A stretch of DNA of 64,000 bases from Candidatus Bathyarchaeota archaeon. GTDB lineage: Archaea; Thermoproteota; Bathyarchaeia; 40CM-2-53-6. Under the pieces are notes generated by a model that saw only the letters and a list, made by a program, of their open reading frames with translations, ran no database searches and was not told the DNA's origin. The stretch's first letter is position 1. The number at the start of each line of letters is the position of its first letter. Shown piece after piece: positions 1 through 5,683 of the stretch. The stretch is from assembly GCA_963706285.1 (NCBI GenBank), contig CAVPLU010000004.1, positions 64,001 through 128,000 of the forward strand. Reading direction: 5' to 3'. Made by a program: the position numbers and the translations under genes.

Positions 1-884
1 TGGTATCTACAACCCGTTGGCGGGTTGATTGGGCTGGGGATCTCGCCTTTTGGAATGATACGCTTCAGCTTTGCTTTGGGGTCTGGCACGGGTATTGAGG
101 ACAGTAAAGCCAATGTGTAAGGATGTATAGGGCGACCAAACACGTCCTCTTTCGAGCCTATCTCCACGATCTTGCCTAGGTACATTATCGCGATCGTGTG
201 GCAGACATAGTTGGCCATCGCAAGATCATGAGTTATGAAGAGGTAGGTTAGATCGAACTCTTTCTTCAATTCGAGCATCAATTCGAGTATCTGAGCTCTA
301 ACTGAAACGTCAACCATTGCGATGGGCTCGTCGGCCACCACGAATTTGGGATTCAGCACCAGTGCTCTTGCAATTACTACCCGCTGTCTTTGTCCTCCGC
401 TAAGCTGGTGGGGATAACGGTTGCAGAAGTTGCTCCAAGGTTTCAAGCCAACCCGTTCCATTATCGCTCGCGTTCTCTCAATCTGCTCACTCGGAGTTCC
501 CACTCCCTGAAACGACAAAGCATGCCTTATCGCGTCACCCACGTTGATGCGTGGGCTCAGTGACGCCATAGAATCTTGGAAGATCAACTGCATATTCTTC
601 CGGAAACTGCGCAGTTCTTCACCGTGGAGCGTGACAAGATCTACTCCGTTGAAGACGATACTGCCGGATGTGGGCTCTGTCAGCTTGAGGCAGAGTCGTC
701 CAGTCGTGCTCTTTCCGCTGCCGCTCTCGCCTACTAGTCCAAGAATGTCTCCGCGATTCACTGAGAATGATATGTCGTCTACGGCGTGAACGTAACTCTT
801 CTGTGAAGTCAACAGCCTATCTAGGAAGCCCTTCTCAACAGGATAATACTTCTTCAGATTCGTTACGGTGAGCAGGCGATCCAT
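1..884 (-). CDS. oppF: Oligopeptide/dipeptide ABC transporter ATP-binding subunit (3' end outside window)
   Basis: Manual translation from ATG 884: MDRLLTVTNLKKYYPV...GLVGESGSGKSTTGR...RYPHQLSGGQRQRVVIA; Walker A and ABC signature; open to the window edge. Confidence 0.92.
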   Translation of the reverse strand, partial: MDRLLTVTNLKKYYPVEKGFLDRLLTSQKSYVHAVDDISFSVNRGDILGLVGESGSGKSTTGRLCLKLTEPTSGSIVFNGVDLVTLHGEELRSFRKNMQLIFQDSMASLSPRINVGDAIRHALSFQGVGTPSEQIERTRAIMERVGLKPWSNFCNRYPHQLSGGQRQRVVIARALVLNPKFVVADEPIAMVDVSVRAQILELMLELKKEFDLTYLFITHDLAMANYVCHTIAIMYLGKIVEIGSKEDVFGRPIHPYTLALLSSIPVPDPKAKLKRIIPKGEIPSPINPPTGCRY

Positions 885-890
885 TGCATC

Positions 891-1850
891 TTACCTCTTG
901 TCGTAAAGGTGGCAGGCAACCTGTGAACCATTGTGGATCTTGAGCAGCGGTTCCTCTCTTGTGCAACGATCGAAAGCGTGTGGGCACCGTGGGTGGTAGA
1001 GACATCCTGGCGGGGGTTCTGCTAGGTCGGGTGGCGCACCAGGAATCCAAGAGAGCACTTGTCCCTTCTTGGTGATATTTGGCACAGAGTTCAGGAGTGC
1101 TTGTGTGTATGGGTGCAATGGTTTCTCGAACAAGTCATTGGTCTCGCCGACTTCGGCAAGTTTTCCAGCGTACATCACGGCAACACGATCTGCAGTCTCT
1201 GCCACAATGCCGATATTGTGTGTGATCAGAATCAATGTGAGTCCTAGGCTTTCTTTGAGTTCTTTGAGAAGTTCAATAATTTGAGCTTCAACTATCACGT
1301 CAAGGGATGTTGTTGGTTCGTCCGCGATCAGCAAATCTGGTCCTAGGACCAAGGCCAATCCGATCATGACTCTTTGTCTCATTCCACCGCTGAATTGATG
1401 AGGGAAGTCATCAATTCTTTCGAGGTTTATGCCGAGGCGCTCAAGCGTCTCTTTTCCTCGATTCAATGCATCACTCTTGCTGACTTCAGGTTCGTGTGTG
1501 TGGATCATTTCTACGAAGTGATCGCCAATTCTCTTGACAGGATTCAGAGACGTCATGGGGTCTTGGAAGATGTATCCGATTCGTTTTCCTCTTATCTTAC
1601 GTATTTCTTCGTTTGAGCAGTTTACGACGTCAATTCCGTCAAGAGTTATTTGTCCGCCGACAATCCTGCCAGGTTGAGGAACGAGACGCAAAGTCGAAAG
1701 GCCAAGCGTGGATTTTCCGCATCCTGACTCCCCAACCAAGCCGAGTGTGTGGCCTTTTTGCATCTCCAAAGAGACTCGGTCGACCGCTTTCACGTTTCCT
1801 CTCAGAGTGTGATACTCTACGACCAATGACTCGATGTTAAGCAGAGACAT
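891..1850 (-). CDS. oppD: Oligopeptide/dipeptide ABC transporter ATP-binding subunit
   Basis: GESGCGKS, FSGGMRQRV, ADEPTT, C-terminal oligo_HPY Cys motif (HPY...GCLYHPRC...C...C). Confidence 0.95.
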   Translation of the reverse strand: MSLLNIESLVVEYHTLRGNVKAVDRVSLEMQKGHTLGLVGESGCGKSTLGLSTLRLVPQPGRIVGGQITLDGIDVVNCSNEEIRKIRGKRIGYIFQDPMTSLNPVKRIGDHFVEMIHTHEPEVSKSDALNRGKETLERLGINLERIDDFPHQFSGGMRQRVMIGLALVLGPDLLIADEPTTSLDVIVEAQIIELLKELKESLGLTLILITHNIGIVAETADRVAVMYAGKLAEVGETNDLFEKPLHPYTQALLNSVPNITKKGQVLSWIPGAPPDLAEPPPGCLYHPRCPHAFDRCTREEPLLKIHNGSQVACHLYDKR

Positions 1851-1859
1851 GTCGTCGAT

Positions 1860-2753
1860 TCACCTTTGGAGGCGCGGGTTGTATAGTTCGCTCAGGCCTT
1901 CACCTATCAATGTGAATCCTAACGCGAGCAAAACGACCATAATGCCTGGGAACGTTATGACCCACCATGCCCCGCTAGTTAGGAGTCTCCTGCCGTAAGT
2001 CAAGTCCCAACCCCAGTCGGGAGTGGAGACAGGCAAGCCTAAGCCTACGAAGGTGAGGCCGGCGGCTGTGAGAATCGCGTCGGCGAAGTTGATCGTTGCA
2101 ATAGCTACGATCGACGGAATGACATTAGGAAGAATGTATCTGAATAGGGTGGTTCTTCCATTAGCGCCCATCATGCGTGCAGCTTCTACATACGGGAGTT
2201 CCTTGATTGAGAGGACTTGGCTACGGATTATTCTGTAGTAGGATGGAACGTAGACGACTGCAATCGAAAGAGCCATGTTGATGACTCCAGGCCCAAGCAT
2301 GGCCGCGATTGCTATGGCAAGCACTAGGCCCGGGAACGCGTAGATACTGTCCATCACCAATGATGTGAGCTTGTCTGCGTATCCTCCAGTGTATGAGGCA
2401 AAGAGACCGATTGGAACTCCTATGATCAGGCAGACGATGACGGATAATACTGCCACTTGAAACATTATGGTTCCACCGGATATGACTCTGCTGAGCATGT
2501 CTTGGCCAAGATGATTCGTGCCTAGCGGAAACTGATATGATGGCGGCGAGAGTAGAGGTCCGACGTTGATCGCGATCGGATTGTGAGGAGATATCAGGGG
2601 TGAGAATATTGTCATTATCGCGAGCGCCACAACTATCACTGTGCCCGCGATTATGGCCCATCCAGCCAGTCCACTCTGTTCGAGTGAAACAATCCTTTGT
2701 ATGAGGAGAACTAGCATTCTTCCACGCGTTTGGTCGTCGCTCAAGTTTTTCAC
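1860..2753 (-). CDS. oppC: Peptide ABC transporter permease (OppC/DppC type)
   Basis: LGTNHLGQDMLSR, EAA loop YVEAARMMGA, TM helices. Confidence 0.93.
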   Translation of the reverse strand: MKNLSDDQTRGRMLVLLIQRIVSLEQSGLAGWAIIAGTVIVVALAIMTIFSPLISPHNPIAINVGPLLSPPSYQFPLGTNHLGQDMLSRVISGGTIMFQVAVLSVIVCLIIGVPIGLFASYTGGYADKLTSLVMDSIYAFPGLVLAIAIAAMLGPGVINMALSIAVVYVPSYYRIIRSQVLSIKELPYVEAARMMGANGRTTLFRYILPNVIPSIVAIATINFADAILTAAGLTFVGLGLPVSTPDWGWDLTYGRRLLTSGAWWVITFPGIMVVLLALGFTLIGEGLSELYNPRLQR

Positions 2754-3785
2754 CTAGAGCCTAATTCGAGGATCCAAATACGCGTACAGCATGTCGACTA
2801 CCAAGCTTACAGCTGTGACGAGGAGGCCAAAGAACACTACAACTCCTTGAATTGCGGTGTAGTCCCTGAAACTGATCCTATCAACCAGATACCTGCCAAG
2901 CCCAGGCCACGAGAAGGTGGTTTCAGTCAAGATTGCACCGGCAAGCAGCGCGGCGAATTGCAGCCCCATCATTGTAAGGATGGGGAGGAATGCGTTTCGC
3001 AGCGCGTATCCATAAACAACGGTTCGTTCCTTGAGCCCTCTTGCTCTAGCCGCTGTGATGAAATCGAGTTGCAGTGTCTCCAGCATGTTACTCCTTGTCA
3101 GCCTAATGAAAATCCCACAGAGAACAAGCCCGAGCGCTATTGAAGGGAGAATGAGATAACGTATTGACAAGTACAGTTTCTGCATGTCGCCCTCTAGCAG
3201 ACTGTCCAGCACATACAGCCCCGTGGCATAGTGTTGTCCGCTGATCAATAGGCCGGCAGGCGATATACCGGGATACATTCGTCCGCCAGCCGGGAGCCAG
3301 CGCAAATAGATCCCGAAGATCATGATAAGAACCTCGCCAAGAAAGAACACCGGTATCGCGTAAGATGTGATGCCGAAAATTCGTATCGAGTGGTCTTTCG
3401 TCGTATTGTACGAGCGAGCCGCGGTCGCGCCCAGAAATACACCTAGCACCACCATGATGATGGTCGATGCTATCGCAAGTTCAAGCGTCGCAGGAAACGC
3501 CGAGAAAATCTGCTGGGATACAGGAGAAAAATCCTGCATTGATATACCAAAATCTCCTCGAACCAGTGCAGCGAGGTAGTCGAAATATTGCACGATAAGA
3601 GGTCTGTCAAGCCCCAATCGCTGCTTGAACACGAGTAGAGTTGCTGGAGTAACGTTCTTCTCAAAATGAAGAGATGCCGGATCTCCCGGCAGCACTCTGA
3701 TGATCAAAAAGACAAAGGTGAGTAGTAGCATGATCATCGGAATGGTCAGCAGAATCCTTGCGATGATGTAGGACCTGAGACTCAT
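2754..3785 (-). CDS. oppB: Peptide ABC transporter permease (OppB/DppB type)
   Basis: Start re-called at MSLRSYIIARILL; LPGDPA, GDFGIS, DFITAARARGL, ETTFSWPGLG. Confidence 0.93.
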   Translation of the reverse strand: MSLRSYIIARILLTIPMIMLLLTFVFLIIRVLPGDPASLHFEKNVTPATLLVFKQRLGLDRPLIVQYFDYLAALVRGDFGISMQDFSPVSQQIFSAFPATLELAIASTIIMVVLGVFLGATAARSYNTTKDHSIRIFGITSYAIPVFFLGEVLIMIFGIYLRWLPAGGRMYPGISPAGLLISGQHYATGLYVLDSLLEGDMQKLYLSIRYLILPSIALGLVLCGIFIRLTRSNMLETLQLDFITAARARGLKERTVVYGYALRNAFLPILTMMGLQFAALLAGAILTETTFSWPGLGRYLVDRISFRDYTAIQGVVVFFGLLVTAVSLVVDMLYAYLDPRIRL

Positions 3786-3861
3786 GACGATTCGAGGGAG
3801 TGTGGGCGATAGATAAGAATTGCCTGAATTGCAGCCACTAGAATTCGGGTCTTTGAAGAAA

Positions 3862-3908
3862 CAGAGCCTCACGTGGTGGCTCTGAATAAAGAAAAAAAGA
3901 AAAGAGAA
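3862..3908 (-). terminator. Oligo-T tract followed by a 7-bp hairpin between the SBP gene and the first permease
   Basis: Minus strand TTTTCTTTTTTTCTTT just after the SBP stop; CAGAGCC/GGCTCTG inverted repeat at 3862-3884. Confidence 0.6.
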
Positions 3909-3931: not shown

Positions 3932-5683
3932 CTATGTCTTTCGCTTGCGCAGCATAATCACAGCGCCGACGATTGCAAGGATGATGCCAACTCCGATTGC
4001 TCCGAGGGCCAATTGGATAGTTGCCGCTGGTGTTGCTCCAGTGTAGCCAAGCCCCGTAAGCGTAGAAGTGACAAGTGCCATGTTCGCGTCTCCGAGTGTC
4101 TTGTAAGCATCTTGGTGGAACGCCATTCCGTTAGGTATCATGCTGTATAGAGGCACTGCTTGTCCTAGGAAGACCGTGTCCACTACCTCTTGTCTGTTGA
4201 GTGCTGCCGCAATCGCCTGTCTGACTTCGGGTTTGTCGAATGGTGGAGTTCGTTCTTGGAAGCATATGTATTGGATGAAGGCGCCTGTGCCTTCCCAGAC
4301 CTTCAACGTTGAGTCTGACTGCATGTTCTTGATATCGCTTGAAGCTAGTTGTCTGAAGGCCATGTCAATATCGCCGGACTTTACCGCGAGGGCTAGTGCA
4401 GTCGAATCGCTGTAGAACTTGATGATGATGTGTTTGGATTTTACGTCCGCCGCGCTAAAGTAGCTCGGGTTTGCGTCGAGTTTCATCTCGTAGTCCTTTC
4501 CACCCTTTCGCGTCCAATCTGTCAACAGGTAAGGTCCTAGATCGTTGGGGTTGCTTGCGCGAGCGTTTCCGTCAGTGTACTGGACGGCTGTGCCTGGTGT
4601 GTTAGGGGCGTACTTCGGGTTCACGATATACGATCCAGAGAACGCCATCAGTGCTAGGAATGGTGAGAATTGATTCTTCAATGTGAAGACTGCTTGGTAC
4701 TTTGAGGCTGCCGTCACGCTTTTGATGATGTCTCCGTAGCCGAGTCCTACTTGTGGGCCGTCAGGCATTGCCAGTCCGATGTTTCTGTCGAAACTGTACT
4801 TGACCGCGTCCGCAGTGAACTCAGTTCCGTCAGAGAACTTTACGCCCTGTCTTAGGTCGAAGGTGTAGGTCAAGCCGTCAGAGCTAACCGACCACTTGGT
4901 CGCCAGCGCTGGCATGAAATCATTGGGGCCTGCAGCCGATCCAGGCTTGATATAAACGAGTGGAGCACCGAGGTTCACGATCATCTCGGATCCTCCGAAG
5001 AAGTCCCAAACCTCTGCTGGGTCAAGACTAGTTTCGACCGAGTCGGTTGTTCCCACAATCAGCGTATCCTTACCCGAAGGTGGACTGATGAGCCAGTAGT
5101 ACATGTTCTGGGTGATGTCTAGGTTCACGCCTGTAACGCCTGGTTTAGTCACAGCCCATGCTGAGCCTTGGAAGACGGGAACGATCGGTGCATCCTGCAC
5201 CATTATGGTTTGGATTTGAGAATAGAGTTGACCTCTCTGGGTTGCGTCAGAGGTTGACCGTGCTTGGGCAATGAGTTTGTCCATGTCTGGGTTGCTGTAT
5301 CCTGTTCCAAGCCAGCCACCGCCGACTGTGTCAAGGAATGGTTGGATATAGTCGTCGGGATCGAGGTAGTCAGGGTACCAACCATAAACATAGACTGGCA
5401 TACTGTGTGCGTCTCTGTTCGTCTTGTAACTTGCCCAGTCAGCGCCATGGAGGTTCACTGTTATCAGTCCTGTCTTCTCCATTTGTGACTTGTAGACTGC
5501 TGCTTGGTCCGCGCTTTGCGGGTAGTGTCCTGAAGATTCATACCACCAATCAATCGTGAGCTTCGGTGGGGGAAGCGTGTAGTAGTACGCTCCCACGCCA
5601 AGACTGGCGAGGCCAAGGAGCATTACGATGATTCCGATGCCTTGCATTCGCGCTATTGCTTTCTTGTTTAGTCCAAAAGTCAT
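3932..5683 (-). CDS. Family 5 (DppA/OppA-like) substrate-binding protein, circularly permuted, with N- and C-terminal membrane anchors
   Basis: Family 5 motifs LATKWSVSSDGLTYTFDLRQGVKFSDG, VRQAIAAALNR and GWYPDYLDPDDY are present but in permuted order. Confidence 0.92.
   Translation of the reverse strand: MTFGLNKKAIARMQGIGIIVMLLGLASLGVGAYYYTLPPPKLTIDWWYESSGHYPQSADQAAVYKSQMEKTGLITVNLHGADWASYKTNRDAHSMPVYVYGWYPDYLDPDDYIQPFLDTVGGGWLGTGYSNPDMDKLIAQARSTSDATQRGQLYSQIQTIMVQDAPIVPVFQGSAWAVTKPGVTGVNLDITQNMYYWLISPPSGKDTLIVGTTDSVETSLDPAEVWDFFGGSEMIVNLGAPLVYIKPGSAAGPNDFMPALATKWSVSSDGLTYTFDLRQGVKFSDGTEFTADAVKYSFDRNIGLAMPDGPQVGLGYGDIIKSVTAASKYQAVFTLKNQFSPFLALMAFSGSYIVNPKYAPNTPGTAVQYTDGNARASNPNDLGPYLLTDWTRKGGKDYEMKLDANPSYFSAADVKSKHIIIKFYSDSTALALAVKSGDIDMAFRQLASSDIKNMQSDSTLKVWEGTGAFIQYICFQERTPPFDKPEVRQAIAAALNRQEVVDTVFLGQAVPLYSMIPNGMAFHQDAYKTLGDANMALVTSTLTGLGYTGATPAATIQLALGAIGVGIILAIVGAVIMLRKRKT

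Follow-up and report, generated by a model that had tools for sequence, protein, structure and literature searches.

The window analysed here is a stretch of 64,000 nucleotides (nt) from a Candidatus Bathyarchaeota archaeon (GCA_963706285.1, contig CAVPLU010000004.1, positions 64,001 to 128,000 of the forward strand), and the subject of this report is a gene at 3932..5683 on its minus strand that encodes a substrate-binding protein (SBP) of family 5, or cluster C, with a circularly permuted chain. The gene (protein P0001) is an uninterrupted open reading frame (ORF) of 583 amino acids (aa) plus a stop codon, and all of its parts lie on the minus strand. Residues 1–40 (5564..5683) comprise a positive N-terminus, a hydrophobic helix (7–35 in an AlphaFold2 (AF2) model) and a short TLPPP tether; the helix is predicted to be a signal anchor or a signal peptide. 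Block A, aa 41–200 (5084..5563), corresponds by Pfam and by alignment to OppA and DppA to the canonical C-terminal part, being made up of the second half of the C-lobe and the final N-lobe elements, and includes the invariant residue D105. The SPPSGK linker (aa 200–205; 5069..5086) connects the two ancestral termini, C to N, and leads into block B, aa 206–550 (4034..5068), which by Pfam and structure alignment is the canonical N-terminal part, namely the N-lobe and the first part of the C-lobe. The remaining residues, 551–583 (3935..4033), were assigned from hydropathy and from the model (helix 552–580) as a short tether, a C-terminal transmembrane-like helix and an RKRKT end.

Each block occurs once in the ORF, in swapped order and with no second copy of either, and neither a stop codon nor a second leader separates A from B. 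The leader is homologous to that of canonical-order relatives. Block B ends in a helix closing with LGY; in canonical-order relatives the chain goes on after 3–4 residues to a KL.LDWWY strand, which is the very strand that opens block A in P0001. The old termini are therefore linked and the new termini lie at a former internal site, as in a natural circular permutant. An earlier note, made from the letters of this DNA alone, had proposed such a permutation, with block A at aa 41–200, the linker at nt 5069–5086, block B at aa 206–550 and, at the end of block B, the helix that normally precedes block A; its coordinates proved exact, and alignments to profile hidden Markov models, Protein Data Bank (PDB) sequences and structures, all reversed, bear the proposal out.

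The reversal is evident in comparisons with the family. The Pfam profile SBP_bac_5 (PF00496) matches P0001 with 249.5 bits (cut-off 32.4; E 7.3e-74) in two stretches of inverted order, aa 256–547 aligning with profile positions 2–278 of 368 and aa 47–122 with positions 291–366. No collinear match was found, either to this profile or to solved members of the family; this is the variant feature and no sign of non-homology. A phmmer search of PDB sequences gave 101 distinct matches at E<=0.01 and the reversal appears in every alignment printed: for 3m8u, aa 241–517 match residues 37–313 and aa 55–180 match residues 361–486, and 5u4o and 4qfk behave in the same way. Block A alone aligns to OppA 359–508 and DppA 357–493. 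All of the best 60 of these 101 matches, and all structure matches listed, belong to family 5, with no MglB-like protein among them.

A structural model was built with AF2 from an alignment of 99 same-order (permuted) sequences, here called A1. It has a mean predicted local distance difference test score (pLDDT) of 90.4 and a predicted template modelling score of 0.84, the two terminal helices being of lower confidence; a model from the single sequence (pLDDT 37.7) was unusable and was dropped. Foldseek places the model with DppA, GbpA, AapF and relatives at E about 1e-18, and VIA-align superposes residues 206–549 on residues 1–342 of mature Escherichia coli DppA (1dpp_A) with Z 23.9 and a root-mean-square deviation of 3.3 over 322 aligned residues. 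The ancestral N-terminus therefore comes directly after the linker, and the new C-terminus after DppA residue ~342. Block B also superposes on NikA, OppA and MppA, the Z scores, DppA included, ranging from 23 to 25. Both programs are sequential aligners, and their alignments cover block B only. The confidence of the model, together with canonical relatives 91–92% identical to permuted proteins, suggests that the whole three-domain, bilobed cluster C fold is kept.

The break maps between DppA residues ~342 and ~345, within domain III, whose limits we take to be about 261–478. By these limits it falls in the C-lobe, and therefore both new termini, and with them both hydrophobic anchors, attach to the C-lobe, as the earlier note had supposed in placing both on the other lobe. 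The old termini can evidently be joined, another of its suppositions: the linker is short and residues 191–210 of the model have pLDDT 93–97, while P202 and D206-T207-L208 are nearly invariant in the 99 sequences of A1. Taken together, these comparisons confirm P0001 as a permuted SBP of family 5 (cluster C).

The permuted order is widely shared. A homologue search gave 1989 hits among 8000 scored candidates, and the 120 best homologues were returned and scored for block order. In 97 of them (53–97% identity to P0001, from several archives) block A precedes block B, and the three joints of the permuted order (leader|A, A|B and B|tail) recur; the canonical order, B then A, is found in 23 (58–77% identity). 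Both blocks match over their full length in the 97 and in the 23, so the likeness is not a chance resemblance. The named relatives are mostly Bathyarchaeia. Among 41 related genomes, nine of them other genomes of the same genus, full-length same-order matches occur in five of these nine (G001, 98% identical; G009, 78%; G007, 77%; G004, 73%; G002, 71%), and a full-length permuted copy 76% identical to P0001 is found in G036, which belongs to another family of the order.

The joints themselves also appear in contigs of other runs. Two studies supplied DNA contigs that span the A|B linker at 5069–5086 (X1 record 3, covering 4645–5163, and X4 record 19, covering 5003–5114), and the leader|A joint is bridged by contigs of four runs, two of them metatranscriptomic libraries. 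Contigs of two metatranscriptomic runs cover 4172–4984 and 5073–5682; positions 4985–5072 are without cover in these RNA-library contigs, and none of those listed crosses the A|B linker. A misjoining of pieces of one or two canonical SBP genes, by assembly or by gene calling, might be feared in a metagenome-type assembly (21 contigs, 89% complete, 7.5% contamination) and in view of a related contig, L110, that ends in a chimeric-looking piece, but there is next to no chance of it when the special joints recur in 97 of the 120 best homologues, in five sister genomes and in bridging contigs of other runs, and when A passes into B through a conserved linker, uninterrupted by a stop codon or by another leader. 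Several of the checks that the earlier note had named, namely a separate alignment of each block, a search for same-order homologues and a look for DNA spanning the junction, gave reversed hits in SBP_bac_5 and in the PDB, the 97 homologues and five genus genomes just described, and the bridging X1 and X4 contigs, respectively. What that note treated as a single oddity is seen from this evidence to be a large clade in which the two orders have switched repeatedly.

The gene is under purifying selection. Compared with the G001 orthologue over 583 codons (dS 0.164), the ratio of nonsynonymous to synonymous divergence (dN/dS) is 0.059; compared with L142 (dS 1.18) it is 0.097. Constraint is seen in each of the two blocks and also in the C-terminal tail. 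The reading frame is intact in P0001 and in the G001, G007 and G004 orthologues, in line with the earlier claim of an uninterrupted ORF in a functional gene.

P0001 heads a DppBCDF-type operon, with two permease and two ATPase genes directly downstream on the minus strand, an arrangement conserved in its relatives; the divergent upstream neighbour is cysS. The downstream genes encode a DppB-type permease (2754..3788; BPD_transp_1_N and BPD_transp_1), a DppC-type permease (1860..2753; BPD_transp_1), a DppD-type ATPase (891..1850; ABC_tran and oligo_HPY) and a DppF-type ATPase (3..884; ABC_tran and oligo_HPY) whose 3' end lies beyond the window. With two BPD_transp_1 permeases and two ABC_tran plus oligo_HPY ATPases, the operon is complete, as had been claimed. 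The mechanically called ORF of the DppB-type permease begins with GTG at 3872, and an ATG (MSLRSY...) lies at 3788; orthologues align from about residue 30 of the longer form. The start is likely to be the ATG at 3788, in which case the spacer after the SBP gene would probably measure about 143 nt, not 59.

With regard to the ligand, D105 is invariant in the 99 sequences of A1 and aligns with OppA D419, which we take to be the aspartate that binds the α-amino group of the ligand. D436 of E. coli DppA is described as binding the peptide amino group (PMC12136057). A peptide-like ligand is plausible because of this conserved aspartate, equivalent to OppA D419 and DppA D436.

Under the hydropathy rule applied (mean Kyte–Doolittle value of at least 1.6 over 19 residues), P0001 carries hydrophobic segments at both ends that could act as export signal or membrane tether, with maximum 19-residue means of 2.03 for the N-terminal and 2.75 for the C-terminal segment. 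Its tethers are short, about 5 residues on the N side and about 10 on the C side, and the distribution of charges fits a topology in which both termini would lie inside and the SBP outside. By eye, no convincing similarity was seen that would make the C-terminal tail a duplicated leader, and this idea was set aside.

The data presented above have led us to a model in which P0001 is very probably a working, membrane-tethered, circularly permuted receptor of the adjacent Dpp/Opp-type ATP-binding cassette (ABC) importer in an uncultured archaeon; the transport role, the membrane topology and any effect of the tether are what we infer. The chain opens with the strand found after DppA residue ~342 in the usual order, runs to the ancestral C-terminus, crosses a linker of 5–6 residues to the ancestral N-terminus and closes with the helix that in the usual order leads into that opening strand. 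Capture of the ligand between the lobes and docking to the permease would be expected to proceed as in DppA and OppA, with the N-terminal hydrophobic segment and the C-terminal tail attached side by side on the C-lobe and not on the N-lobe. The new position of the tether may alter how the SBP is presented to the permease. At the DNA level, two adjacent segments, B (about 1.03 kb) and A (about 0.48 kb), were swapped with the leader and the downstream permease gene unchanged, and such exchanges have recurred in this SBP subfamily.

Several observations weigh against this model. The packing of block A on block B rests on AF2 confidence and on the canonical relatives of 91–92% identity. The carboxylate-binding arginine of DppA (R383) is unmatched in the alignment, and the ligand class is therefore uncertain; moreover, fusions to beta-helix, NosD, dockerin or pectinesterase domains occur among the close canonical relatives, so that substrates other than peptides could be involved. 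The RNA-library contigs attest presence in a library, which is no proof of transcription, and none listed bridges the linker. Block A of the G009 orthologue (G009:C38, L010, about 1990–2000) contains a TAG codon in frame, and in G002 the orthologue (G002:C12, L014) is shortened near its 3' end (..AFHEDAR, then stop). The genome itself holds a second permuted copy, on contig C9, with a frameshift and without adjoining transporter genes. The TAG in G009 (..NP*MD..) sits where relatives carry E, D, Q or K and could be a sequencing or metagenome-assembled genome (MAG) error, decay or read-through, and the early end in G002 could likewise be a MAG or sequencing error, or decay.

Searched with P0001, its own genome gave eight matches: this gene, the C9 copy in two pieces, four C16 fragments and one weak match on C12. 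The C9 copy (G000:C9:76050-77670; locus L103, 9159–10668) has the order A-then-B, is 61–74% identical and carries the linker ESSR in place of PPSGK; it has one frameshift in block B, and no permease or ATPase hits were found in the 19 kb around it. It is possibly a pseudogene, or the frameshift may be an assembly indel. The C16 pieces (G000:C16:4712-5328; L004, L005, L007 and L008) overlap one another and are short SBP-like fragments, 33–63% identical depending on aligner and piece, interrupted by TAA and TGA stops, and appear to be what is left of another gene for a family-5 SBP.

These damaged copies, namely the G009 and G002 orthologues, the C9 paralogue and the stop-containing C16 fragments, are what might suggest that P0001 too is a decaying relic, a rearranged gene that survives but no longer serves its transporter. 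Such decay is very improbable for the gene in the window: dN/dS is 0.06–0.10 in both blocks, the frame is intact here and in three orthologues, the clade is large and diverse with a conserved operon context, and none of the eight matches to the P0001 query in its own genome is a close canonical copy that could serve this operon instead.

The two orders are found at one and the same locus. In another genome of the genus, G006, locus L100 reads PPase-CDF-orf120-cysS | SBP-permB-permC-ATPaseD-ATPaseF with an SBP of canonical order; in comparison with the window its flanking genes are 69–81% identical, the cognate permeases 72% and the SBP 52–59%. G009 carries the permuted form (80%) at the G006-type locus. 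In a third genome of the genus (G008:C10, L101), the whole transporter operon, whose SBP is again canonical, lies in the opposite orientation with respect to cysS and has diverged further (51–61%) than the neighbouring cysS-CDF genes (78–89%), which suggests replacement or rearrangement of the operon there.

Closer pairs came from metagenome contigs searched with canonical P0064, which gave 54 close loci: 48 have the order A-then-B, mostly continuing into permease and ATPase genes, two begin with B (L107 and L108) and four are partial. Over the upstream flank and the leader, L107 (positions 1–1370; B-A) is 93.9% identical in DNA to L145 (1802–3174; leader-A). In L145 block A directly follows the leader (3178–3584), and in L107 the corresponding DNA (2442–2848; 91.6% identical) stands 1.07 kb further on; L108 is 93.0% identical to L145 over 2388 nt. 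As L107 and L145 share this flank and leader at 94% and differ in order, the order changed in situ between close strains: the blocks traded places, while the leader on one side and the downstream gene on the other were conserved. The joints of L107 read leader-Thr linker-KDTL..., ...LGY-TTQK-KLVLDWW... and ...ITPGS-stop, and those of L115 and L145 read leader-(Thr linker)-ALK-KLVLDW... and ...ITPPEG-KDTL.... Inspection of the L107, L110, L115 and L145 junctions revealed neither long direct repeats nor sites of recombination. An AAG lysine codon precedes each block start in L107, L115 and L145, which may be chance. The exchange could have proceeded by duplication and trimming, or by recombination. 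The last ~55 nt of L110 leave the gene and repeat an internal piece of block B, resembling a chimeric contig end.

Switching of this kind extends well beyond one locus. A search of representative sequences gave 46,444 hits at E<=1e-3, of which the best 150 were listed and 149 classified by block order (P0031 was already A-B): 108 are B-A, 15 A-B, six B-A-B, nine B only and 11 of other compound order. In the B-A-B proteins the second break lies near P0001 residue 478, at the lobe boundary (DppA ~270). This second kind of permutant, B(273–343)-A-B(1–273), is seen in P0127, P0180, P0187, P0201, P0248, P0265 and P0270, and its chain would cross between the lobes only once. Genome-contig loci matched with A1 numbered 80, with 77 B-A, one A-B-like and two partial, a sample from which close kin may be absent and which says little on frequency. 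The single A-before-B locus among them, L059, on a Thaumarchaeota MAG contig, is 31–36% identical and may be a further independent permutant.

Trees were computed on re-ordered block alignments from which any row sharing 88% identity or more with a retained one had been removed (P0064, P0068, P0070 and P0071 were lost from the first tree in this way); six permutants of the second kind were included and P0187, classed B-A-B-B, was left out. In the FastTree tree of 176 rows, P0001 belongs to a clade of 59 rows, A-B throughout, that is itself nested among proteins of canonical order. In the IQ-TREE tree of 60 rows, the starred branches alone require at least eight changes for A-B and at least five for B-A-B, and canonical P0064/P0068 group, with support 100, with permuted P0058/P0059 at a position deep within the permuted clade; over B and A these canonical and permuted proteins are 91–92% identical. 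When all 22 A-B rows were held together the log-likelihood fell by 1275 (approximately unbiased (AU) test, p 2.5e-7), and a single origin of the A-B order is rejected.

A pattern of this kind might also arise if one or a few old permuted lineages had traded sequence with their canonical paralogues, whether through gene conversion or through recombination (the Thr-linker DNA, being of low complexity, is one place where this might occur), making A-B and B-A genes look like sisters. The leader joints do carry Thr-rich linker codons, the leader of permuted P0058 is almost identical to that of canonical P0068 while that of P0059 differs, as in a recombinant, and the 76% identical permuted copy in another family (G036) indicates that transfer occurs. 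Opposite-order sister pairs, however, stand at eight or more places in the tree for the P0001 break point and at five or more for the second, at very different depths, and the cost of holding the A-B rows together (1275 log-likelihood units, AU p 2.5e-7) speaks against few lineages. Moreover, the two blocks of a pair show much the same degree of similarity, so conversion would have been needed on each block separately, every time, and with 77 of the 80 A1-matched genome loci canonical, permuted donors are not everywhere. Gene conversion is thus an unlikely account, though one still to be reckoned with for part of the recurrence.

A hydrophobic N-terminal segment is present in 86 of 87 evaluable permuted proteins. 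At the other end, a C-terminal hydrophobic segment occurs in 44 of 96 complete permuted proteins versus none of the 23 canonical ones; another 50 of the 96 end within 8 residues of block B and two are of other kinds. The permutation may be selectively neutral, the break lying in a surface loop, the old termini touching and the position of the tether being without meaning, and to this we give a chance just short of even. Both orders serve at the same locus with the same permeases, tether length varies among permuted proteins from about 5 residues to Thr-rich stretches of about 15–20, the C-terminal anchor is absent in the 50 proteins just mentioned, and the apparent insertion of a whole SBP at the same loop in P0128 indicates that the loop is permissive. 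Against neutrality stand the restriction of C-terminal transmembrane tails to the permuted order, though the relatives counted are not independent, and the size and long life of the permuted clade; neither the distribution of tails nor the size and age of the clade proves an advantage.

A broader proposal, which we put forward tentatively and think rather doubtful as a whole, is that family-5 SBPs of archaea and some bacteria are a hot spot of reversible permutation. One locus would flip between leader-B-A and leader-A-B at about 94% flank identity, and the same two break points, one in the loop that follows DppA ~342 and the other at the lobe boundary around DppA ~270, would be reused many times. 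A facile DNA route would underlie the changes, such as a tandem duplication, in frame, of the mature region with later trimming, or illegitimate recombination starting from Thr-linker repeats, and the permuted order would be kept because it allows two membrane anchors next to the C-lobe.

In relation to known systems, P0001 belongs to the same Pfam family as the canonical cluster C SBPs (E. coli DppA, 1DPP, 1DPE and 8Z1Y/8Z1Z; OppA, 1B05 and 3TCF; NikA; GbpA, 3M8U) and shares with them the fold over 320 aligned residues at Z 23–25, the operon type and the conserved amino-group aspartate. It differs from DppA in that the equivalent of residues ~345–507 comes first and that of residues 1–342 second, so that both termini lie in the C-lobe, and in that hydrophobic anchors are found at both ends, whereas canonical SBPs have a cleaved signal peptide or an N-terminal lipid. 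The canonical archaeal relatives (G006 L100, the P0064/P0068 group and L107) have the same leader type, blocks 52–77% identical to those of P0001 and the same neighbours, cysS and permB-permC-ATPases; unlike P0001, they have the order leader-B-A with a B|A joint of 3–4 residues, and none of the 23 has a C-terminal transmembrane tail.

Of the published precedents found, TpMglB-2 (Tp0684) of Treponema pallidum comes closest; the part of its account at hand describes it as a natural, circularly permuted, membrane-tethered ABC binding protein that still binds ligand (PMC4990184). Its authors proposed a “Type Ic / Cluster Bc” and wondered whether the topology is an adaptation to tethering, and in that same part a single permuted topology is reported, from treponemes or spirochaetes and mainly Gram-positive bacteria (PMC4990184). 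By this description TpMglB-2 resembles P0001 in being a permuted, membrane-tethered SBP of an ABC transporter and differs in belonging to cluster B (glucose/galactose), with another fold class, another break point and no sequence relation; by the matches listed, P0001 shows no homology to cluster B glucose/galactose-binding proteins and so falls outside Cluster Bc. Order switching at one locus, seen in the relatives of P0001, goes unmentioned in the part of the TpMglB-2 account at hand. No description of a natural permutation in family-5 or cluster C SBPs was found in the open-access literature and bioRxiv, and the string “permut” is absent from the main text of the GisABCD paper. What sets the case apart, within an ordinary SBP family and an ordinary type of transporter, is the rotated chain, the anchoring at both ends and the unusually well-documented switching of order.

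Circular permutants are rare in nature, and the known cases usually represent one event of long ago. The present system offers dozens of sequences in both orders, including pairs more than 90% identical, at the same locus and with at least two reused break points, and the opposite-order pairs at one locus amount to a natural experiment in the rewiring of a protein. They open the questions of how a permutation originates at the DNA level, how a hinge protein tolerates new termini and what the position of the tether means in SBP-dependent ABC import. For annotation, collinear profile models under-cover permuted SBPs, the best Pfam stretch here being aa 256–547 only, and the natural break points are ready-made sites for biosensor engineering in cluster C scaffolds.

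Among 23 hits from a search for longer proteins (1022–2915 aa), no B-A-B-A or A-B-A intermediate near the P0001 clade was found, which is weak evidence; multi-SBP chains were seen only among distant relatives. In P0233 and P0249 (about 2700 aa), P0242, P0209 and P0203, two to four SBP units stand in tandem in one frame (B-A-B-A...); these giants are 26–29% identical to P0001 and are the type of array from which permutants could be cut. P0128 (1036 aa) has the order B-B-A-A and looks like a complete SBP inserted in the B|A loop, the same loop as the break point of P0001. Large C-terminal extensions occur in canonical-order relatives 46–56% identical to P0001 (P0271–P0284 and also P0122, P0129 and P0130). 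Within P0271–P0284, 12 have Beta_helix and NosD extensions, some with dockerin or pectinesterase as well, and the extensions of P0277, P0281 and P0283 have other domains. The extended proteins are surface-display-like SBP fusions in Bathyarchaeota-type archaea.

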